Shown here piece after piece: positions 5,689 through 31,668 of a stretch of 64,000 nt of DNA (positions within the stretch are counted from its first letter, which is position 1; every line of letters starts with the position of its first letter). The notes beneath the pieces were generated by a model. It did not search any database and was not told the DNA's origin. It was given only the letters and a program-made list of their open reading frames with translations. The translations under genes and the position numbers were made by a program. This stretch comes from an uncultured Bdellovibrionales bacterium (lineage in GTDB: Bacteria > Bdellovibrionota > Bdellovibrionia > Bdellovibrionales > SG-bin7). Where the stretch lies: positions 114,257 to 178,256 of the forward strand of contig CAZCFY010000007.1 in the NCBI GenBank assembly GCA_964498095.1, given 5' to 3'.

Positions 5689-7259
5689 TAGAACATCTCC
5701 GCTCGCGAATTTTCCCAAGCATGGTGGTAACTGCCGGGAACTTTGCCGTCAAGCAATGACCCCGGAGCTAAGTAATCGTAGGCCTCACCATAGTGGCGAA
5801 CCGTAGAAAAGCTTTCGCGACGGTGAATATGCCAGGGGCGTAATTCACTAGGGTGGGAGAGCCCAGAGGCGGCCAATACTTCTAAGAAGCTTTCTATCGT
5901 ACTGCGATGGTAATTAAATACTCGGGTGGCCTTGTGAGTTGGGTCAAGGCCTCCCATTAAACCCTTGTCTTGCGTCGCCACTCCTGCGGGACAGTGATTG
6001 GAATTGCAGCGCAAAGCTTGAATACAGCCCAAGGCGAACATCATTCCACGCGCTGAATTGCAGAGGTCTGCTCCTAACGCGATCTTGGATAAAATATTAA
6101 ATCCAGTTATGACTTTTCCGCTGACAATGATTTTTAGTTTGTCGCGGATACCCGTGCCAACCAAAGCATTATGAACAAAAATAAGACCGTCATTAAGGGG
6201 CGTTCCCACGGAATTCGAAAACTCTAATGGTGCGGCACCCGTACCACCCTCGCCGCCATCGACGGTAATAAAATCGGGATATATTTTTGTTTTAATCATG
6301 GCTTTAATAACAGAAAACAATTCGCGGCGTTTGCCGACACAAAATTTAAAGCCGACGGGTTTCCCACCCGAGAGGTCGCGCAGTTCCTGTAAAAACTCTA
6401 CCATTTCCACTGGCGTGTTAAAGGCCGTGTGAAAGGGCGGCGAAAAAACCGTTTTGCCCACTTCTACACCGCGAATTTCAGCGATTTCTTTTGATACTTT
6501 TGCCGCCGGCAAAATTCCGCCGTGACCGGGCTTGGCCCCTTGGGACATTTTTAATTCGATCATTTTAACGCTCTCAAGAGTCGCGCGCTCTTTAAACATT
6601 TCGGGATTAAATCTTCCGTCTTTTGTGCGGCAACTAAAGTAGCCTGTTCCCACTTGCCAAACGATGTCGCCCCCTTGCAAGTGAAACGGCGACAGGCCGC
6701 CTTCGCCAGTATTGTGATAGAATTTTCCCATTTTAGCGCCACCGTTTAACGCCATCACAGCATTTTTAGACAAGGCCCCGTAACTCATCGCTGAAATATT
6801 AAATAACGATGCTGAGTAAGGCTTTGAACATTGCGAATTGCCAATTGTCACCCGCGGCTCTTCGTGGAGCATGGGTTTTGGAACCATCGAATGATTAATC
6901 CATTCGTAACCGGGACTGTACATATCCAACTGTGAACCAAAAGGCAGAGTATCAAGATCCTTTTTGGCGCGCTGATAAATCACCGAGCGCTGCGCGCGGC
7001 TAAACGGCTTGCCCTCTTCATAGCTTTCAATAAAATACTGCTGAATTTCGGGACGAATCATTTCGAGTAAATAACGAAAATGACCAACGACAGGAAAGTT
7101 CCGTAAAATCGAATGTCGCGTTTGAAAACAATCCGAAACTCCCACCATAAAAACGGGAATGAGTAAGACAAAACTGTAATAAATGGGCGGCCAAATCAGC
7201 CCCGCGATCCCAACAGTGGCCAAAATCGCAACGGACGTTAACCAAAAGAATTTTCTCAT
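5688..7259 (-). CDS. FMN-binding glutamate synthase family protein (GltB FMN-domain-like) with N-terminal TM helices
   Basis: 523-aa ORF with a hydrophobic N-terminus. It has a central GEGG...GAKPGHGG and a DGGEGGTGAAP pattern. Confidence 0.7.
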   Translation of the reverse strand: MRKFFWLTSVAILATVGIAGLIWPPIYYSFVLLIPVFMVGVSDCFQTRHSILRNFPVVGHFRYLLEMIRPEIQQYFIESYEEGKPFSRAQRSVIYQRAKKDLDTLPFGSQLDMYSPGYEWINHSMVPKPMLHEEPRVTIGNSQCSKPYSASLFNISAMSYGALSKNAVMALNGGAKMGKFYHNTGEGGLSPFHLQGGDIVWQVGTGYFSCRTKDGRFNPEMFKERATLESVKMIELKMSQGAKPGHGGILPAAKVSKEIAEIRGVEVGKTVFSPPFHTAFNTPVEMVEFLQELRDLSGGKPVGFKFCVGKRRELFSVIKAMIKTKIYPDFITVDGGEGGTGAAPLEFSNSVGTPLNDGLIFVHNALVGTGIRDKLKIIVSGKVITGFNILSKIALGADLCNSARGMMFALGCIQALRCNSNHCPAGVATQDKGLMGGLDPTHKATRVFNYHRSTIESFLEVLAASGLSHPSELRPWHIHRRESFSTVRHYGEAYDYLAPGSLLDGKVPGSYHHAWENSRAEMF

Positions 7260-22946: not shown

Positions 22947-24608
22947 CTAAAGCACGGAGAGGTGGCCGAGTGGTTGAAGGCGCATGCCTGGAACGCATGT
23001 ATGCTCGCAAGGGCATCGGGGGTTCGAATCCCTTCCTCTCCGCCAATTTAGATCTTGCTTCATTTCACTCAAAGTCCGCAGTGGTTTTACTATTTCATAC
23101 CGCACACTTAGACCATCCAAAGTTGGGTTGTAGAGTAGGTCATCCAACAGCAAACGTCGTTCTTCAGGGCTTTGCAATTTCCACAGTGATTCTGCGTTTG
23201 TGGCGAGTTGTAGAATGGTTTTCGCTGTTTCGAGTGCAGCACCGTTTATGTCTAGCTGGGCACGTTCCATCAGATTTGTGAACTGTGCGCGTTCCTGTCT
23301 CACACGCTTGAAGTTTCGCTTGTATGAATCATCATCAAGAATTCCTTGCCGAAAATGTTCATAAATCTGGTCTTCTTCATCTTCCAGCGACTTCAGTGCC
23401 AACTTGTAGTTTTCAATATCGCGCTTGATAGCATTCTGCGCCTTCTTTTCATTTTCATTCAATGCTTCAGCAACCAGTTCGCTGAATTCTTTTGTAATGC
23501 TGATTTGTTGAATTGCAGGTTCAAATTGTTCCATCAATTCTTCTTCCTTTATTCGCATTCCCTTCAGGCTGGAATGGACACCTTTGCCATTGGTGCAGTG
23601 ATAGTATTTGAATACCTTTCGTTCGCCAGTGGCCTTGATGTTCTTCTTGGTGGGGTTGTAAACGACGTGACATCCACATTCAACGTTCGCACACTTCATC
23701 CAGCCGCCACTGAACAGACCATCGGTTTTTTTTGAATATGGGTTTCTGAACCCAAAAGTTTCTTGGACTGTCCAAAACAGTTCGGCGGGGATGAGTCTTT
23801 CGTGTTTTCCTTGGTATTCAGTGCCTTGCCAGTCAAAGCGACAATCATAAAATTTATTTTTCAAGCGTCGATCAATTGTTCCAACATGATAGCTTTTTAT
23901 TTCAGAAGGCTGAATAAAGCCTTCGTCGATGACCTGTCGTCTGACTTCTCGAAGGGAAATCGGATTGCCATTGTGATCTTTCTTTGCCCTAAGTTCAAAT
24001 TCCCGCCGCACCTGTGCAACTACTTTTGGGTTGGGATCAAAAACCACAACTGTGCCACGTCGCTTTTCAAACCCCTTTGAATTTCTGTGTTTCTGATGTG
24101 CATATCCCAATGGAAGATGTGTGCCAGGATGCCAACCTTCTTCGGCCTTAGCCCTGGTCCCATTTTTCACCTTGGTTCCAAGTTCACGGCTGTAGTGTTT
24201 GTTCATTGCTGCATTGATATCACGATTGAAAAACTCTGAATCAGGGCTGTTCTTATGCAAGACTTTGTTGTCCAAAGCATAGTGTAGAATTCTTTTGCCA
24301 AGACGAACTAGATTTTCATTGTCTTCATTGTCTGTCAGGTTTCGCGCTTCCCGATCAGACCGATGATACACATGGTGTTTGATCCCTTGTTTGTCAGCCC
24401 ATTCAACAGCCGCCTTGTATTGCTTTCGCAAACTCGAATCTTTGGCGGACTCAACCAAATAGAAAATCTTGACCAACTGCAAGCCTTTTGATGAACAGTA
24501 TTGCTTCACATCGCGTTCTTGAGTTGAACTCGAAGTGTTGCCTTCCTGTCCAATACTACTGACACGAAGAATTGCGATTGCTTTGTTGTTGCTGGCCGAA
24601 ATTTCCAT
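22947..24608 (-). CDS. Large serine recombinase (integrase); the ORF tail reads antisense through the tRNA
   Basis: N-terminal [10 protein letters not shown] (nucleophile Ser) and SDREARN. Recombinase domain, then a zinc-ribbon CANVECGCH...YYHCTNG and a coiled-coil. AAGGA RBS before the ATG at 24608. The last 32 aa are encoded by tRNA-antisense sequence. Confidence 0.85.
22956..23045 (+). tRNA. tRNA-Ser (anticodon GGA), class II with a long variable arm and encoded CCA
   Basis: Acceptor GGAGAGG/CCTCTCC. Anticodon stem CATGC/GCATG with loop CTGGAAC (GGA at 22990-22992). T-loop TTCGAAT. Total length 90 nt. Confidence 0.9.
23027..23051. repeat. Left direct repeat (att-like) formed by the tRNA-Ser 3' end
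   Basis: AATCCCTTCCTCTCCGCCA (19 nt) is identical to 31644-31662. The match extends to 25 nt with one mismatch (A/C) before TTTAG. Confidence 0.8.
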
Positions 24609-24657
24609 TTTGATCCTTCAGTTTATTAAATTTTCCTTAGAAACTCCATTGTTATCG

Positions 24658-24725
24658 GGTTGTAGAGTGTCTCGCTGTCCCCAATTCCCACGCATTGGTT
24701 TCCTGGTTGTAAAGTGTCTCGGTCC
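24658..24725. promoter_or_regulatory. Two ~20-bp direct repeats immediately upstream of the integrase start
   Basis: GGTTGTAGAGTGTCTCG (24658-) and GGTTGTAAAGTGTCTCG (24705-), 47 bp apart, sit in the 125-bp gap between the zinc-ribbon gene and the integrase. Confidence 0.35.
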
Positions 24726-24733
24726 ACGGCACT

Positions 24734-25090
24734 TCACCAATCAATTTGACCGTTTGCCCTTGCCTTGTCTCTCCACTTGGCAAGCCTTTCAAAAAACTTG
24801 ATTGTCTTCTGAACTTCCCATTTTTCATAGCTTGGGTGCTGAAGAACTTTTTGGACAATAGCTGTCAGGTCATGGCTGGTGATTGAACTTTGGGGTGATG
24901 CTTGTTCAAGCATCGTCTTGCCTGTTCCACCATTCCCCCGCCGTTGTCGTTCTCGCTGCGCCTTGCAGGGCTTGCAGCATGGACCACGACGAACAATGGC
25001 TTCAGCCCTGGCACTGACAATCGGAAAGTCCGATAACACCTTCGATTGGCCGCACACCTTGCATGGTTTTGTATTGTTTTGTTCATCCAA
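24734..25090 (-). CDS. Small four-Cys zinc-ribbon protein (island-encoded), function unknown
   Basis: CKVCG...(24 aa)...CCKPCK followed by a basic stretch. 118 aa. Confidence 0.45.
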   Translation of the reverse strand: MDEQNNTKPCKVCGQSKVLSDFPIVSARAEAIVRRGPCCKPCKAQRERQRRGNGGTGKTMLEQASPQSSITSHDLTAIVQKVLQHPSYEKWEVQKTIKFFERLAKWRDKARANGQIDW

Positions 25091-25193
25091 ACTTCATGTG
25101 ACATCCTTTCCGTCAAAATTGCTTTGATCTTTCGATCCCTGCGCCTGACACCGTTTGTTTATGGCTGAAAGCCATCCGTTTTCCGCAAAACCT

Positions 25194-25628
25194 TTATTTT
25201 CTTAGCTGTGCAAAAATTTTTCTTCGCTGTATTCCGTACTTCACTTTTTCAGAATGTGTTCTCACATCAATGAATTTGGTCTTGGTATTTCGTGCCCAAG
25301 ACAACCATTCACTTCCGCGCTGTGGTTCAACCCAATGGATTTCAAACCCACGTCGCTTGGCTGACTCCACAAATCTTTCAAGAATAATGAATCTTTTGGC
25401 AATTCTGTCTGGACCTGAAACGATGATGTGTCTGACATCACGATACCTGGCTACACCAAAGACTTTTGCACCACGAATAGCTTCGTCAGCCGCTGGATCA
25501 AGGAACATTTTTTCTTTGATTTTCAGCCCTTGTTCTTTGGCATAGGCTGAACAAACGAGAAATTGATTTTTCAGAAGTACTGGATCAATTGAACTAGCTA
25601 CAATCAGTGCATGGTGATTCTTCTTCAT
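25194..25628 (-). CDS. Resolvase catalytic-domain-like protein without a DNA-binding domain (degenerate serine-recombinase paralogue)
   Basis: By eye it aligns to the island resolvase: ALIVASSID vs IAIYIRCSTTEQ, and IIVSGPDRIAKRF..ERFVESAKRRGFEIHWV vs LVVWKLDRLFRSL..LHELGDLGIEFVAL. The Arg preceding the Ser is absent. Confidence 0.5.
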   Translation of the reverse strand: MKKNHHALIVASSIDPVLLKNQFLVCSAYAKEQGLKIKEKMFLDPAADEAIRGAKVFGVARYRDVRHIIVSGPDRIAKRFIILERFVESAKRRGFEIHWVEPQRGSEWLSWARNTKTKFIDVRTHSEKVKYGIQRRKIFAQLRK

Positions 25629-25904
25629 AGAAGAGCTCCATGTCGAAATTCAATGCTGAAGAAAGAATTTGGTTCTGTCAGGGGACTGGAAGAGAATTTG
25701 AATGGTGGTGCTTCGGCTTCAGCCGATACTTCAGTTATTATTGCTTCAATTTTCTTCTCTTTCATAAGGTTACTTTCCTTTCCATTATTCTTATTATTAT
25801 ATGCGGTCGTGGATGCTGGTATATATCGGCTGTCCATCCCGATAGCGATATCGTTAAAAAATGTCGATATGTACCGTTTGGATTAGTCTGTATATATCGA
25901 CACA

Positions 25905-26519
25905 TCATTGTAATAATCCCTGTTCGGAAAGATCATCTTTGCCTTGAGTGGCACTAGCTTTAGCATCAAGAAATCCAACTCGAAGACTTCCGTCCATCAA
26001 ATGATTTTCAACTCCGTCGAATTGCCAGCCAGTATTCAGGTCACGATATTTCCAGGCTTGTTTGTATTTCATTTTCTTTATCTTTCCTGTGCCATTGTTT
26101 TTCAGAATGTAACTTGTCCTAAGTAACCCCAAATCATTGAGACGTTTTAGATAACGACCAATGCAGTCTTTTGACACACCAAAAAAATTCGCAAGTGCTG
26201 CGATCTTATAAGTGCATGGATTCCGTTCGGTGGAACCCTCTTTGTCCCAGCAATGGGAAGCAATCCAAATGAAAAGCAAAATAACTTTTGCTGGCAAACG
26301 ACTTAGAAGGACCAAATTGATGTGTCGATCAGTATCGACATGTTTGTACTGACACCAACGATGTTGTTGTTCTTTTTTTCGTTCTGGAACGCCAACAGCT
26401 TGATATGTTTGTCTAGACGTTTGTTTTTTTACCGGTTTAGATTTTTTGCTGTTCATGGTGATCCGTGCTTCCGTTTGCCGTTGATTGAAGAAATGGCGAC
26501 TCAAGTCCATCGCGTCCAA
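25905..26519 (-). CDS. Winged-helix/HTH DNA-binding protein (candidate replication or regulatory protein of the element)
   Basis: KIAALANFFGVSKDCIGRYLKRLNDLGLLR is an HTH-like segment. The N-terminus is basic. Confidence 0.5.
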   Translation of the reverse strand: MDAMDLSRHFFNQRQTEARITMNSKKSKPVKKQTSRQTYQAVGVPERKKEQQHRWCQYKHVDTDRHINLVLLSRLPAKVILLFIWIASHCWDKEGSTERNPCTYKIAALANFFGVSKDCIGRYLKRLNDLGLLRTSYILKNNGTGKIKKMKYKQAWKYRDLNTGWQFDGVENHLMDGSLRVGFLDAKASATQGKDDLSEQGLLQ

Positions 26520-26712
26520 GAATTTTCAAAATCCTTGCGCGAACATTTGGCCAAGATGGTTCATGTCCATAAGCCGTGTGAATGATGTCTAGAATTTGTT
26601 TTCGTGCAATTTTGAGTTTGGTGTGTAGTAACTCAAAATCAGTATGCTGATCCGTTGCCATGTGCCGACTCGCTATCTCAATAGGCTTTTGCCCATTGGT
26701 CTTCAGTTCCAA
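26437..26712 (-). CDS. Hypothetical small protein (island)
   Basis: 91-aa ORF co-directional with the downstream wHTH gene. No recognisable motif. Confidence 0.3.
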   Translation of the reverse strand: MELKTNGQKPIEIASRHMATDQHTDFELLHTKLKIARKQILDIIHTAYGHEPSWPNVRARILKILGRDGLESPFLQSTANGSTDHHEQQKI

Positions 26713-27171
26713 TAGCGATTATTCACTACTGGTTTTCCTGAAGACTGCGGCGGATAGTTGCCAGTCAGGGGACGAACACAATCAACAAACAACAAGTGAT
26801 TGGCTTTGCGCCAATCCTATCCCTTTTGTCTCAGCGGTATTGATAGCCAAACAAATCGGCCATGTCAATAAAGTTCAATAATATCAATATGTTATACGTT
26901 GTTATACAGACATAAGTGTTTGAACTTAAAGGGAATGATCGAGTTATTGCCCAGCATTAAATGGGCACTTCTGAAGGATCAGTGGTCAGATTTTTTCAGA
27001 AAAAGAAAACAAATTTTTGAAATGGACGTGACCGCAATGCGGGACATGTTTTGGCTGAAGCGGCTTAGATACACCGTGGGGTTGCCGTGCGCCTTTATTG
27101 TGGGAGTATTCAATAAATTCGATACCCACCCCCACATTTATTTAGAAATCATTCTAGGTTCCAGCGAACGT

Positions 27172-27390
27172 TCAAGGTCGCTTCCGTTTATCTTTTGGTT
27201 GCGAGAGTCGTGTGCGAACGTATTGATCCAAGGCTGTTGCGGCGATGTCACTGACCGTCCAGCCGTCACGATCCGCAATTTTATCTATTTGAGACAGCAA
27301 TGCTTCAGGAAGTCGCCAAGCAATGAGTCGCTTTGGTCCTTTTGAAAAAGTCTTAGGTGGAAGAGTTTTCATATCTACTTTATAGCACAA
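27172..27390 (-). CDS. Ribbon-helix-helix (CopG/Arc-like) DNA-binding protein
   Basis: RLIAWRLPEALLSQIDKIADRDGWTVSDIAATALDQYV has the RHH beta-alpha-alpha pattern. The start may be MKTLPP at 27372. Confidence 0.55.
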   Translation of the reverse strand: MCYKVDMKTLPPKTFSKGPKRLIAWRLPEALLSQIDKIADRDGWTVSDIAATALDQYVRTRLSQPKDKRKRP

Positions 27391-27404
27391 CCCTGATTCA
27401 AGTT

Positions 27405-27421
27405 GCTATACGTTGTATAGC
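27405..27421. promoter_or_regulatory. Palindromic operator-like site between the divergent RHH and resolvase genes
   Basis: GCTATAC-GTT-GTATAGC has perfect 7-bp arms. An extra TATAGCA half-site lies at 27381-27387. Confidence 0.4.
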
Positions 27422-27452
27422 AATAAATAACAACATGTGTTATGCTGTGTGA

Positions 27453-28055
27453 ATGAAATCGGGAAGAATAAAAAGGATTGCCATATACATCCGCTGTTCA
27501 ACAACTGAACAAGACACTTCAATGCAATTGCACGATCTTCAGGAATTCACAAAGGCAAGGGGATGGTTAGTTCATAAGGTATATGAAGACTATGCTTCGG
27601 GAACGACTGCTAATCGCAAGGCACTGAAGGAAATGCTTCAAGATGCAAAACAGCGCAAGTTCGATGTCCTAGTAGTTTGGAAGTTGGATCGGCTATTCAG
27701 AAGTCTTCGAGACATGGTGACGACGCTGCACGAACTTGGGGATCTTGGAATTGAGTTCGTGGCACTTCGGGATCAAGTCGATTTGACCACGGCTTCAGGT
27801 CGCCTGATGACACACATGCTTTCAGCCTTTGCAGAATTTGAGGCATCATTGATTCGTGGTCGAGTGGTTGCTGGCTTAGAATCAGCACGAAGGCGCGGCC
27901 AGCGTTTGGGAAGACCAAGGCTGCGAGACGATGACAAGATTCGGTCCTTGCGCCACCAAGGACTGTCAGAACGCCAAATTGCAATCCGACTTGGGATTTC
28001 TAGGGGTGCTGTTCAGCGGTCGCTGCGAGTGGATTCAAAACCCATTCAAGGCTGA
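27453..28055 (+). CDS. Small serine recombinase (resolvase/invertase, Hin/Tn3-resolvase family)
   Basis: IAIYIRCSTTEQ, VVWKLDRLFRSL and a C-terminal HTH (GLSERQIAIRLGISRGAVQR). Confidence 0.9.
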   Translation: MKSGRIKRIAIYIRCSTTEQDTSMQLHDLQEFTKARGWLVHKVYEDYASGTTANRKALKEMLQDAKQRKFDVLVVWKLDRLFRSLRDMVTTLHELGDLGIEFVALRDQVDLTTASGRLMTHMLSAFAEFEASLIRGRVVAGLESARRRGQRLGRPRLRDDDKIRSLRHQGLSERQIAIRLGISRGAVQRSLRVDSKPIQG

Positions 28056-28216
28056 TCTTCCAAGTGACCGAAATTCCAAGGTCTGGATCACAGTATTTTG
28101 CTGGATTCAAAACTGAAGTTTTCGATCCATCGTTCCGCACAAATGTATAACAGGCTGTAACATACTCTGAAATAGTCGGCTCCAATCACCACGATCATTT
28201 CAAAAACGATTCACCC

Positions 28217-28574
28217 GAAACATTGCAACGTCAGCATGTTATGTTTGGCTGACAATCGTGTTTCATGTATTCCAAAAAAAAATGATTTTGGATCACCCCT
28301 AAACATGCTTTTATGTTTGGTCCAATTTAATGGCGAAAAGTGGTCGTATCAATAGGGCTTGGGGTGCCCTGTTTTGCTGTTCTTCCTTGGGGAAAAGCAT
28401 GTTTCGTTATGTTTTGAACATGAACGATCAAACATGCGAAACATGTCAAAGCGTATCCCCACATGGCACCTACTTATACCCCCATTCAAACATAAAAATC
28501 CATGTTTGGTGTAAGGGGGTTTCGGGGGGCTTTATAGGGGGACTTCGAATCAACAGAACATGTTTTATGTTTGG
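28217..28574. repeat. Iteron-like array: eight or more copies or half-copies of CATGTTT/ATGTTTGG in both orientations, in non-coding DNA
   Basis: CATGTTATGTTTGG 28235-28248. CATGCTTTTATGTTTGG 28304-28320. CATGTTTCGTTATGTTTTG 28398-28416. Inverted CATGTTTCGCATGTTTG 28429-28445. CAAACAT/CATGTTTGG 28487-28509. CATGTTTTATGTTTGG 28559-28574. Confidence 0.6.
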
Positions 28575-28622
28575 TTGGTTCTTTTTGTTTGTAGCTTGCC
28601 AAGTACTAAAATCGCAGCATGG

Positions 28623-29288
28623 TTACGCTTGAATCAGTTGGCACTCACCAGCGCCAATAACTTCTGGTGAATACCTATCGAGAGTAAAGCTGCCGTCTTT
28701 TCTGGTTGCAGAGAACAAAAGTGGCATTTCAAAGTTTCCACAAGTATTTCGAATTTCATTTGAGTTTTTATTTCTGGGCGGATGAAGCTGAAAGTTGTCG
28801 CTTTTAATTTCACCGGCAACTCGTTGCTTGTACCACTTTGCACATATTGATCGAAATACTCGGTCTTTGTCCGTTCTCACACACCAGATTCGACATCTCT
28901 TATTTCCAGTATTGGGTTCGTCATCCCACAGCACGAAATAGATATGGGGAATGTCATCGAGTGCGGATACGCTGAGATCTTTTCGCGATGTTTCCGATTT
29001 TCGGCCAGAAGGAATAACTCCATTGAAGCGAGGAGTATCAATTGCTTCCCAACAATTTGCGGCTTTTACGTCAGATCCATCTTCAAGGTCTGAGCCTTTT
29101 TTTTGAGCAAGTCCCTTTTTTCCTGTCAGTACTGAAACAAGGATTTGAGACCATGCTCTCGAATCACTTGGAATGGGTTGGCCGTATTTGTTAGCTAGAG
29201 GATGTACTTCATAAAATGCTTTGTGATGGGTGTTCAGAAGTCGGATAGCTTCGGATATGTTTTCTGGTTGTGATCCTCTAGGTGGCAT
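28623..29288 (-). CDS. Putative type II restriction endonuclease (PD-(D/E)xK, PvuII-like core)
   Basis: WSQILVSVLTGKKGLAQKKGSDLEDGSDVKAAN parallels the PvuII segment [33 protein letters not shown], which I recalled from memory. The gene is divergent from the adjacent MTase. Confidence 0.55.
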   Translation of the reverse strand: MPPRGSQPENISEAIRLLNTHHKAFYEVHPLANKYGQPIPSDSRAWSQILVSVLTGKKGLAQKKGSDLEDGSDVKAANCWEAIDTPRFNGVIPSGRKSETSRKDLSVSALDDIPHIYFVLWDDEPNTGNKRCRIWCVRTDKDRVFRSICAKWYKQRVAGEIKSDNFQLHPPRNKNSNEIRNTCGNFEMPLLFSATRKDGSFTLDRYSPEVIGAGECQLIQA

Positions 29289-29416
29289 ACGACCACTGGT
29301 CGGAATTTTGCTAACATTTCTGAAGGACTTAACTCATCGCAAAAATTTCGGATGCGGATCGTGATCCATATACAAGGCTTAGATATTGGTCTAGGCTTTT
29401 CACAAACGAGGTAACC

Positions 29417-31318
29417 ATGACCAAGGTAAACAACTTAGAAAAGCATCTACTAGAATTTGCAGACTATATTTATGCACACACCGCGCTAAAGCCCATGTCT
29501 AAAACGTTATTTTTTGTTTCTAGACTTCTTCTGGTGATGAAGCACTCCTCAAAATTGAACAAAGCAATTGAAATGGGTAGATCACCGTCAATTGACGAGT
29601 TGGTTAAGGAATATAACTTAGTCAGAAAAAAGTTCTCGCTCAATGAAGACGACTACGACCTAACTCAAGTACTCACTGATATTGAGCCTCAACTTGAAAT
29701 GGTTTTGAGTTTTCTGGTGAAAATCCACCAATTATCTGCCGACTTTGACGTATTAGGGCTAGCCTTCAACTCATTGTTAAGAGGGAAGTTTGAGGCGGGA
29801 GAAGGACTGGGCACTCATTTGACCCCAGAAGAGGTCGTTGTTCCAACTATTGAAATGGCGATAAGTGCGATGGATAAGAAGGCGCTCAAAGGGCTTCTAT
29901 CGGAAAAAAGCGAGCTAATTGCCGGAGACATTACAGGGGGAACAGGGAGATTCATGTTCCACCTAGTAAAAGCACTGGAGAAGAAGAAAAACGCCTCGCT
30001 TTCGATTATAAATAAAGTATTCCTTTATGACCAATCAAAAATTCACACTGAGTTTTGCGAAATAAATTTTCTCTTAGAGAGTGAGTTCAAGCCGAAGTGT
30101 TACTGTGTTTCTGATTCACTGACCAGCTCCGCACTTGATAAACATAAGGGCAAGTTCGCGCTGTTGCTGACTAACCCACCATTCGGAGTGAATAAGTATT
30201 CTTACAGTGAAATGGTTAAGAATCATTTTAACGAGAAGATTCTAAAGTTTTTCAATTTCAATGTCGCCGGTGCCACGATTGATCCGGCTTGGTTATTTAT
30301 TGTTAAAAACTTGGATTTATTAGCTGACGGCGGAGTGCTTGGGATTGTTTTGCCAAACGGAATCGCCCATTCAGAGGAGTTGATTCGCTTGTTTAATAGC
30401 TATGAGACATTGAACCAAGTCGAACTTTCTGTGTGTGGAGTATTTTCTTTGCCCACTGTGACCTTTGCCCTTGGCGGCACCGTCGCGAAAACCACAGTGC
30501 TTCTAATTGGCAAGAATACCGAATTCAAAAAGCTGGCAACGGCAACAGTTGAACATATCGGTTTTGAGAAAAGTGGCAATAAGCGCACCGAATCTGTGCA
30601 TGGAAATCAGCTTATGGACGTTGCAAAAGAGTTTATTGCGGGTGAAAATAGCAAATTGTTAACGTGGTCAGATAGCTGGAGAGATTTTGCAAGACTCTCC
30701 CCAGATTTAATCCAATTCAAATCTAGAAAAAATCAGAATAGTTCATTGGAAATGGAATCGCTTGAGAGCCTTGTGTCCCACAGGAGAGACTTTGGTAAAA
30801 TTCAAAAAAACTCTCAATCGAAGCATCTACACATTTCAATTCTTGATATTGATGAAACCGGACTAATTGATGTGAGATCTTGTTTGGCGCAAGCACCTGT
30901 TACACAGCCACTTGTTTGTGAGCCAGGAGATATTTTGGTATCTTGCTTGAACCCAAATATTTGGAGAGCGACGTTCATTCCAGAATTGCCTAATACAACT
31001 TGGACTTGTAGCCCTGAATTTGCTGTCCTAAAGCCTAAAAAGATCGGCCAGCTTCATTCAGCTAAGTTATTCCTTTTGATTCAACAACACGCTGTTAGAA
31101 GCCAAGTTGTTTCCTTAGGAAGAGGGACATCTTCAAGCAGACAGAGAGTGAAGAAAACAGATCTTAACCATGTCGATGTGCCTATTCTGTCCTTAGCGGA
31201 TACAACGGTTAAAAACTTTCTAAAAAGTCGAATGGATTTTTATAAAAACAGAATGACGGAACTAGAGTTTATGCGTGAATTGAGTGCGGGTTCTGCTGTG
31301 GAATTGAGTCTGAGCTAA
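29417..31318 (+). CDS. N6-adenine DNA methyltransferase (gamma class) with a C-terminal target-recognition region
   Basis: Motif I GDITGGTGRFMF precedes motif IV LLLTNPPFGV. 633 aa. Confidence 0.85.
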   Translation: MTKVNNLEKHLLEFADYIYAHTALKPMSKTLFFVSRLLLVMKHSSKLNKAIEMGRSPSIDELVKEYNLVRKKFSLNEDDYDLTQVLTDIEPQLEMVLSFLVKIHQLSADFDVLGLAFNSLLRGKFEAGEGLGTHLTPEEVVVPTIEMAISAMDKKALKGLLSEKSELIAGDITGGTGRFMFHLVKALEKKKNASLSIINKVFLYDQSKIHTEFCEINFLLESEFKPKCYCVSDSLTSSALDKHKGKFALLLTNPPFGVNKYSYSEMVKNHFNEKILKFFNFNVAGATIDPAWLFIVKNLDLLADGGVLGIVLPNGIAHSEELIRLFNSYETLNQVELSVCGVFSLPTVTFALGGTVAKTTVLLIGKNTEFKKLATATVEHIGFEKSGNKRTESVHGNQLMDVAKEFIAGENSKLLTWSDSWRDFARLSPDLIQFKSRKNQNSSLEMESLESLVSHRRDFGKIQKNSQSKHLHISILDIDETGLIDVRSCLAQAPVTQPLVCEPGDILVSCLNPNIWRATFIPELPNTTWTCSPEFAVLKPKKIGQLHSAKLFLLIQQHAVRSQVVSLGRGTSSSRQRVKKTDLNHVDVPILSLADTTVKNFLKSRMDFYKNRMTELEFMRELSAGSAVELSLS

Positions 31319-31356
31319 ACTATTTCGACCGCTTCATTCGCTTTGAACCGAGCGGC

Positions 31357-31385
31357 TGGGCACGGCTTGGGCACATGATGGGCAC
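31357..31385 (+). repeat. Three TGGGCAC direct repeats at exact 11-bp phasing
   Basis: TGGGCAC at 31357-31363, 31368-31374 and 31379-31385, about 260 bp inside the right end of the element. Confidence 0.5.
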
Positions 31386-31496
31386 GAAATCGAGTGCGGC
31401 CATGAATGTTCAGAAACAATGTGATTGCAAGGGGTTGGTTAGGCAGCATGTGATAGGCAATCATTCCGAAAGCTGTCTATTCGTGTCCGCCAAAAT

Positions 31497-31527
31497 AAAA
31501 AAGCTCACTGAAGGTGGGCTTTTTTTA
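31497..31527 (+). terminator. Rho-independent terminator downstream of the MTase
   Basis: AGCTCAC-tgaag-GTGGGCT forms a stem with one G-U pair, flanked by an A-run and a T7 run. Confidence 0.5.
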
Positions 31528-31643
31528 TTTTGTTGGCAAGGTAGCGATAAGAACTCAGACGAGGGGTTCGATCAAAATAGCACAATGCTATTTTGGCGCG
31601 TAGCCTTGAGCGGAGCGAAAGGTCGAGGGCAGGAGCCCGAGAC

Positions 31644-31668
31644 AATCCCTTCCTCTCCGCCACTTTAG
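31644..31668. repeat. Right direct repeat (att-like), a copy of the tRNA-Ser 3' end
   Basis: AATCCCTTCCTCTCCGCCAcTTTAG. The sequence upstream of it is not tRNA-like. Confidence 0.8.

Follow-up and report, generated by a model that had tools for sequence, protein, structure and literature searches.

A multi-copy YATGTTTNG site array in an integrated element of a Bdellovibrionales bacterium as a candidate assembly site and replication origin for a small winged-helix protein

The Vibrio cholerae element PLE is integrated by means of a large serine recombinase (LSR), encodes a small initiator (RepA, of the RepA_N family) which has a winged-helix DNA-binding domain and neither helicase nor primase, and carries a non-coding origin with several repeat types, among them semi-palindromic units in which inverted sub-repeats meet at an A tract (PMC7145576). 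SGI1 is an integrated island with an iteron oriV (PMC7433901), and this oriV, like the iteron theta origins of R6K, pPS10 and RK2, presents multiple sites for an element-encoded winged-helix protein in an intergenic region beside an A/T-rich stretch. Here we analyzed a window of 64,000 nucleotides from an uncultured Bdellovibrionales bacterium (contig CAZCFY010000007.1), in which an 8.6-kb element is inserted in a tRNA-Ser(GGA) gene and holds an array of short sites in one of its intergenic gaps. The array is a real, non-random and non-coding cluster of multi-copy sites within a mobile element. The known kind to which it comes closest is the array of sites for an element-encoded winged-helix protein, here with a protein of a rare, unannotated family and with a site arrangement that fails the classical iteron tests. 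We tentatively propose, from sequence comparison, that the array is the cis-acting assembly site of the winged helix-turn-helix (wHTH) protein of the element and would most likely be the replication origin of the excised 8.6-kb circle, a reading which we place a little short of an even chance.

The gap covers 567 bp (28056-28622) and lies between convergent genes which meet 3'-3', a small serine recombinase (resolvase) gene on the plus strand with its stop codon ending at 28055 and a MamI-like nuclease gene on the minus strand with its stop codon at 28623. Counting both strands, the gap has 12 copies of the hexamer ATGTTT, where the rest of the window predicts 0.39 (Poisson P ~2e-14). Four of the seven copies of ATGTTTGG in the entire window are found here, and the composite CATGYT-N0-6-ATGTTT has all five of its matches in the gap, with 0.12 expected per 64 kb and at least five obtained in none of 100 shuffles. 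The alignment of 15 sites gave the consensus YATGTTTNG, with C or T at -1 in 14, T at +1 in 12 and G at +3 in 11 of them, and these flank preferences differ from those of the 138 background ATGTT sites of the window. The spacers within pairs are 0-12 bp long and the clusters stand 67-112 bp apart. The sites, and the other features of the gap, are distributed as follows.

28218-28574, both strands: whole array, 15-16 ATGTT-core sites with the consensus YATGTTTNG in five clusters
28218-28249, both strands: cluster 1, AAACAT (a minus-sense site), then CATGTT-ATGTTTGG
28274-28282, plus strand: A9 tract, in the part of the gap (28259-28290) whose 30-mers are richest in A+T (80%)
28299-28321, both strands: cluster 2, AAACAT-GCTTTT-ATGTTTGG, inverted sub-repeats around a T/A run, of which TTTTATGTTTGGT is exactly repeated at 28563
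28395-28447, both strands: cluster 3, five sites with a large imperfect dyad, CATGTTTCG-TT-ATGTTTTGAACATG ... TCAAACATGCGAAACATG
28453-28461, plus strand: GTATCCCCA island, not an ATGTT site, common to this gap and that of the related locus L019
28485-28509, both strands: cluster 4, CAAACAT-AAAAATCC-ATGTTTG, with the counterpart AAACTT-AAAATTC-AAGTTT in the related locus L024
28515-28541, plus strand: runs of G5, G6 and G5
28556-28575, both strands: cluster 5, GAACATGTTTT-ATGTTTGGT
27045-27058, plus strand: outlying site CATGTTTTGGCTGA, in the intergenic region between the ribbon-helix-helix (RHH) and wHTH genes

The features that the initial annotation had listed are all present where it had placed them. 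Two copies of its composite motif match exactly, CATGTTATGTTTGG at 28235 and CATGTTTTATGTTTGG at 28559, and two carry one mismatch each, at 28304 (CATGCT-TTT-ATGTTTGG) and 28398 (CATGTT-TCGTT-ATGTTTTG). The inverted composite copy was found at 28429-28445, the split palindrome CAAACAT-N8-ATGTTTG at 28487-28508 and the half-sites at 28218 and 27045-27058.

The distribution of such arrays was surveyed in 858 kb from 106 fetched loci. Among resolvases with usable context that of L019 is the closest, and this locus has the same order as the window, namely an LSR overlapping a tmRNA gene, an HTH_36 protein, a resolvase (P0014, 65% identical), a 482-bp gap and a convergent gene. Its HTH_36 protein is a remote homologue of the window wHTH (29% identity over 96 aa, pairwise E 6e-12), and its gap contains 11 ATGTT against 0.7 expected, CATGTTTTCATGTTTGG among them. 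No similarity between the two gaps was found by blastn, and identity in a MAFFT alignment is concentrated in islands, namely the ATGTT sites, GTATCCCCA and a hairpin past the resolvase stop. In L023 an LSR and the wHTH relative P0136 occur with a resolvase 38% identical to that of the window, and downstream of this resolvase there are seven AACAT against 0.6 expected, together with G runs. L024 and L025, from metagenome-assembled genomes of Bdellovibrionota, carry the wHTH relative P0138 with a tyrosine integrase, and their 400-bp intergenic gap contains ten AAGTTT/AAACTT. Two sub-architectures recur there with one base changed, AAGTTT-TG-AAACTT against ATGTTT-TG-AACAT in the window and AAACTT-AAAATTC-AAGTTT against AAACAT-AAAAATCC-ATGTTT. 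Four of the five strongest hexamer arrays in the 858 kb are those of the window (12), L024/L025 (10) and L019 (9); other high-scoring hexamers belong to an AACCCG repeat in L008 and to G+C-rich hexamers in Actinomycetota loci.

The profile of the wHTH family matched open reading frames (ORFs) of these loci only in L019, L023, L024, L025 and L026. The resolvases of L020-L022 are 60% identical to that of the window and have nearly the same recognition helix, and these loci have neither a wHTH nor an array; in L023 and L024 the resolvases are 34-38% identical, yet both wHTH and array are present. The presence of the array does not follow the recombinase lineage, and the co-occurrence expected of a res site is therefore not found. 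The integrase type (serine or tyrosine) and the cargo also vary among the array-bearing relatives. As binder of the array, the initial annotation had offered either the wHTH or the RHH protein. The first half of this proposal is retained, since the presence of the wHTH tracks the array across loci, and the second is not, since a 45% identical RHH homologue occurs in L021, which has no array. The wHTH is the only protein whose presence tracks the array, which is suggestive and not a proof. Metagenome contigs scanned with the resolvase gave 80 loci of at most 53% identity with a wHTH or ATGTT array in none of them, and these served as negative controls; genome contigs scanned with the same protein gave a best match of 45% identity and no related element.

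The gap has a second component which consists of G/C runs and GTATCCCCA. Runs of at least four G or C number eight in the window gap (28296-28541) against 1.9 expected, and eight against 2.2 in L019 (7213-7491); the G runs of L023 lie at 6454-6464.

It may be asked whether the gap holds a chance repeat, a non-coding RNA or a gene, either decayed or small and hidden, without any dedicated function for the array. A 100-aa ORF (28330-28632) covers part of the gap, and the folding z-scores are about -3.5 (-3.4 and -3.6 on the two strands). This ORF and the smaller ORFs of the gap, however, have no match in Pfam, PHROG or NCBIfam, two stops interrupt the 84 codons of the matching L019 frame, and gene calls are absent from the gaps of L019 and L023. 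The weak peptide similarity of the 100-aa ORF to the L019 gap is explained by shared DNA words, and a hidden gene at 28330-28632 is ruled out by the missing family match together with the stops in the L019 frame. The view of the initial annotation that the gap is non-coding, which would have fallen with a conserved coding gene in homologues, is upheld. Rfam gave no match at E <= 1 in 24000-30000, the only match across the whole window being the tRNA, and the strand symmetry of the z-scores is read as DNA-level palindromes and not as RNA. With the enrichment given above, and with a motif kept across loci whose flanks blastn cannot align, an array of no function is very unlikely. Three further candidates were rejected. 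Mini-ORFs reading 'MFG' from ATGTTTGG are ruled out by sites on both strands and by the AAGTTT version of L024, which lacks an ATG; the array does not belong to the restriction-modification cassette, whose homology begins 18 bp past the last array site; and it does not represent integrase arm sites, as the same array type occurs with serine or tyrosine integrases and lies more than 3 kb from att.

The candidate binder and its neighbours are given below, with the features of the resolvase which are discussed further on.

25905-26519, minus strand: wHTH protein, 204 aa, HTH_36, the presumed binder of the array
27172-27390, minus strand: RHH (CopG-like) protein, divergent from the resolvase
27453-28055, plus strand: small serine recombinase (resolvase), 200 aa, with Gin invertase as closest solved structure (E 2e-26)
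28030-28041, plus strand: single further copy of the arm, in direct orientation, placed 72 bp upstream of the palindrome and inside the 3' end of the resolvase gene
28102-28129, strand not assigned: 28-bp palindrome TGGATTCAAAAC-TGAA-GTTTTCGATCCA, just past the resolvase stop and outside the ATGTT array

The wHTH family has 19 representatives among 1.84 billion proteins, with members of 130-200 aa. In the AlphaFold2 model (mean pLDDT 79) the window protein begins with a disordered, basic stretch, which is followed by one winged helix and by a C-terminal part rich in beta structure. Pfam assigned HTH_36 to 13 of 17 family members, Phage_rep_O to two and Rep3_N to one (E 5e-4); in PHROG, the replication initiation families phrog_270 and phrog_428 were matched by 11 and 9 of the 17, a DnaD-like loader by 8 (best 2e-9) and an O-like family by 5. 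Among predicted viral structures (BFVD) the top fold matches were RepL, a replisome organizer, RepA and O, with a best E of 5.6e-4 and low TM-scores. RepA_N, the initiator type of the pSK41/pTZ2162 replicons and of PLE, was absent from the top Pfam families, and no RepA of the PDB appeared in the sequence search or within the 50 best fold matches. A word-index search with the wHTH alone found only itself and with the family alignment four proteins, viral contigs scanned with two wHTH proteins gave no match, and an exact sequence look-up returned no record for the window resolvase or wHTH. The only annotated relatives of the family thus appear, weakly, to be the origin-binding domains of phage replication initiators, its best annotated matches being the N-terminal domains of lambda O, the SPP1 'replisome organizer' G38P and DnaD-like proteins.

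These matches give some ground for an origin. The argument combines an initiator-like binding domain with many sites in a non-coding convergent gap beside an A/T-rich stretch, with a small recombinase suited to multimer resolution and with the precedents of PLE and SGI1. We infer three things, namely that the wHTH binds the array, that initiation proceeds through this binding and that the element replicates. In the proposed mechanism the LSR would excise the element at its 25-nt repeats, and the wHTH would then probably bind the ~15 YATGTTTNG sites as monomers or loosely coupled dimers, a mode proposed because the site spacing is not fixed. The resulting nucleoprotein complex over ~350 bp may distort or open the A/T-rich stretch around 28259-28290 and may recruit host or helper replication proteins, which is proposed since neither a helicase nor a primase or polymerase is found among the genes of the element. 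Multimers would be resolved by the small serine recombinase at its own palindrome (28102-28129), and the RHH protein would regulate the divergent promoter.

PLE is the nearest precedent, being likewise an LSR-integrated element with a small initiator of this domain type. Its semi-palindromic origin units may be compared with CAAACAT-AAAAATCC-ATGTTTG, and units of the RepA_N-iteron form, with inverted sub-repeats converging on an A/T run, are seen three times in the window (28302-28317, 28489-28506 and 28557-28571) and once in L024, with mostly direct pairs in L019 and isolated sites in L023. PLE differs in that the wHTH family has no RepA_N match in Pfam or by sequence in PDB, and in that the present array has shorter sites (8-9 bp) in greater number and in a different arrangement in each relative, with no helper phage known and with replication only predicted. 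The phage initiators differ in that the wHTH proteins have no C-terminal part for interaction with a helicase loader, and the array lies 1.7 kb from the wHTH gene and not inside or beside it.

A number of results weigh against an origin. The sites of 8-9 bp stand irregularly on both strands, unlike the 17-22-bp direct and helically phased repeats of classical iteron origins, and no DnaA box (TTATCCACA, at most one mismatch) was found in 28056-28622. The AT-rich stretch is short, with one 80% A+T 30-mer around the A9 tract, and the element has no replication enzymes. The wHTH, with one winged helix and a beta-rich part in its model and not the two winged helices of a Rep_3 protein (nor is there a RepA_C protein), is small and has no helicase-loading, primase or helicase domain. 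Its matches to initiators are weak and confined to the generic winged-helix part, its PDB matches by sequence and fold are generic ArsR/MarR-like ones alone, all at E > 0.03, and tblastn against 72,556 plasmids and 50,697 phages gave no homologue. The co-occurrence of wHTH and array rests on four independent wHTH loci only, the arrangement differs among relatives, the array of L024 stands at a distance of 2 kb from the resolvase and in a divergent promoter gap, where an operator fits equally well, and no circular contig was found among the relatives. The array therefore lacks what defines a classical iteron origin, that is phased repeats, a Rep with two winged helices, and a DnaA box with an unwinding element. 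The iteron-like array of the initial annotation persists as a real, non-coding, element-borne array which is kept in relatives, without the phased repeats, the Rep_3 protein or the DnaA box that would make it an iteron origin.

The promoter gap of L024 and L025 brings in another explanation, in which the array is a regulatory operator. Here the wHTH would be a repressor or silencer which coats the array and controls transcription, for instance cargo read-through, an unannotated transcript, or the genes of excision and maintenance, without any replication. The PDB fold and the sequence neighbours of the wHTH are regulators of the ArsR/MarR/Lrs14 type; the L024/L025 array fills the divergent promoter gap with one site directly before the start codon of an XRE-type gene; and isolated copies of the site are found upstream of the wHTH gene and in the promoter region of the RHH and resolvase genes. 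The arrays of the window, L019 and L023, on the other hand, sit between convergent gene ends with nothing obvious to regulate, the gap has a single weak promoter-like match, and ~15 sites in 350 bp far exceed the needs of an operator. We consider this explanation unlikely.

If the origin proposal is widened, the wHTH with dispersed 8-9-bp YA(T/A)GTTT sites may constitute a previously unrecognised minimal replicon of small tRNA/tmRNA-integrated elements in Bdellovibrionota-like bacteria, whose circles would replicate through host or helper machinery only and in which site specificity (ATGTT or AAGTT) would co-evolve with the protein; this wider claim is doubtful, though possible.

The resolvase and its surroundings bear on two other explanations. 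The arm of the 28-bp palindrome, GGATYNAAAAC, has three exact copies in the window (28031, 28103 and 28118), and it resembles the hix/gix half-site TTATCNAAAACC. The same three-copy layout was found in L018 (~665-692), L019 (~7113-7139, arm GGACCCAAAAC), L020 (7013-7023 and 7085-7110, arm TATCGAAAAC, also with a 72-bp spacing) and L023 (6625-6650 and 6712-6724, arm CACCCAAAACA). The arm sequence varies by locus, and all three copies within a locus change together. This layout was established by eye, and only for the window and these four loci; an automated search (at most one mismatch, 42 resolvase loci) returned only L020, by a criterion which misses the window itself too. The palindrome at 28102-28129 is likely the crossover site of the small recombinase, with the third arm copy as an accessory half-site. 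Conservation of the small recombinase, with one palindrome in each element, would fit multimer resolution of a replicating circle.

Resolution sites can combine a crossover site with accessory sequences, as in res II-III of Tn3/gamma-delta, Sin res with Hbsu and cer/psi with ArgR, PepA and ArcA, and proteins which wrap DNA in this accessory way include ArgR/PepA at cer and Hbsu at Sin res. The array could accordingly be asked to play an architectural part in a multimer-resolution site, the wHTH bound to it wrapping the DNA beside the crossover palindrome and imposing selectivity. It stands beside a crossover-type palindrome, beginning within ~90 bp of it in the window, L019 and L023 with sites that flank the palindrome, its extent of a few hundred bp suits wrapping, its clusters stand 67-112 bp apart, and every wHTH locus also has a small serine recombinase. 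Against this, the L024/L025 array is detached, with three genes and ~2 kb between it and the resolvase, the same-subfamily resolvases of L020-L022 keep the palindrome layout without array or wHTH, the array motif is unlike the recombinase half-site, and the wHTH gene belongs to the integrase operon and is not beside the resolvase. Such a role is rather improbable.

The array might also be a set of extra sites, of the res II/III kind, for the small serine recombinase itself. It lies directly downstream of the recombinase gene, and ATTCAAACAT and GATCAAACAT loosely resemble the palindrome arm GGATTCAAAAC. The arm nevertheless differs from YATGTTTNG, so that the half-site shared between res subsites is not found; the motif of L023 is still ATGTT despite a 38% identical recombinase and a different arm (CACCCAAAACA); L020-L022 have no array with a near-identical recognition helix; and 350 bp with ~15 sites is larger than any known res. 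We regard this explanation as extremely unlikely.

The partition alternative which the initial annotation had placed beside a replication origin was examined in the same way. The wHTH would here bind the array as a centromere-like site for segregation or anchoring, with partition that needs no NTPase of its own, for which the single-protein Par of pSK1 offers a comparison. Many short sites, direct and inverted, in non-coding DNA with a small dedicated binder are found in centromeres of type Ib, II and III, such as the omega heptads of pSM19035, parC/ParR and tubC/TubR, and the array does co-occur with a dedicated DNA-binding protein. Those arrays differ from the present one, however, in being contiguous or regularly phased and placed beside the gene of the binder, which here is 1.7 kb away, and most need a partner NTPase. 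Domain searches found no partition NTPase domain (ParA/ParM/TubZ-type) in any ORF of the 8.6-kb element. Partition also needs a replicon in the first place, and no candidate origin other than the array was seen. A centromere is quite improbable, and of the two functions first proposed we consider the origin the more probable.

If the origin reading is true and the element is a working replicon, it would represent a new and very small initiator family and a plasmid-like integrative element family in a poorly studied group, the only named relatives being from metagenome-assembled genomes of Bdellovibrionota. It could also provide a native vector backbone for such organisms, and would add another case to PLE and SGI1 of integrated elements with helicase-less initiators and non-canonical origins. 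If the array is an accessory site or a centromere instead, it would still be a clean dedicated pair of protein and site, with a specificity shifted by one base between relatives. Either way the interest is moderate and for specialists.

The element as a whole has the gene order LSR, HNH-like ORF, orf144, wHTH, RHH, small serine recombinase, array and restriction-modification cargo. It occupies the tRNA-Ser(GGA) gene (22956-23045), whose last 25 nt recur at 31644-31668 with 24/25 identical. Its borders, integrase and cargo are located as follows.

22947-24608, minus strand: LSR (integrase), of which 23039-24372 is 91% identical to L002/L003
23027-23051, plus strand: attL, the 3' end of tRNA-Ser(GGA) and left direct repeat
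28593-31325, cargo cassette: MamI-like endonuclease (28623-29288, minus strand) and N6 methyltransferase (29417-31318, plus strand)
31644-31668, plus strand: attR, second copy of the 25-nt repeat (24/25)

The L002/L003 relatives of the integrase module carry different cargo. The cassette 28593-31325 is 90.7% identical to Logan contig L001 (4036-6767), where its neighbours are unrelated chromosomal genes, ASCH and GAF-guanylate cyclase ones, and its homology borders are sharp, 30 bp and 7 bp past the two stop codons. Since the integrase and cargo modules are matched in such unrelated contexts, the element is a mosaic. By these comparisons the endonuclease and methyltransferase are a separate mobile cargo, unrelated to the array. 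The middle part (24372-28592) had no counterpart in the databases searched, and blastn of 24600-29400 against the plasmid database gave no match. The proposal that orf144 is a degenerate resolvase domain found no support.

Some features of the attachment region were also observed. The shared identity of 25 nt is unusually long for an LSR, and the integrase ORF extends through attL into the tRNA gene and would thus acquire a different C-terminus upon excision; the LSR of L019 (2401-4275) is placed likewise in a tmRNA gene (2179-2530). Near attR, the non-coding stretch 31369-31492 is accompanied by three GGGCAC repeats with an 11-bp pitch (31358-31385). This stretch is kept as two copies (80% and 73%) beside the L002/L003 integrase (L002 9100-9223 and 8392-8516), and it may be a site related to the integrase or to a recombination directionality factor. 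A strong intrinsic terminator follows it at ~31497-31528.

Between the RHH and resolvase genes lies the perfect palindrome GCTATAC-GTT-GTATAGC (27405-27421), which is likely the RHH operator, and the RHH protein probably regulates the promoter region shared by both genes. Tandem TGTTATAC repeats, which are extended -10-like and have a 10-12-bp pitch, were found in the window at 26890-26907 and 27437-27452, and also in L019 (6427-6448 and 8550-8570) and L023 (7772-7792). The resolvase ATG stands 7 nt past TGTTATGCT, which suggests a leaderless mRNA. A 148-aa ORF on the plus strand (26899-27345) begins at a TGTTATAC tandem, overlaps the RHH gene in antisense by 174 bp and has no family match; the ORF is probably spurious, but rightward transcription may run antisense to the RHH gene.

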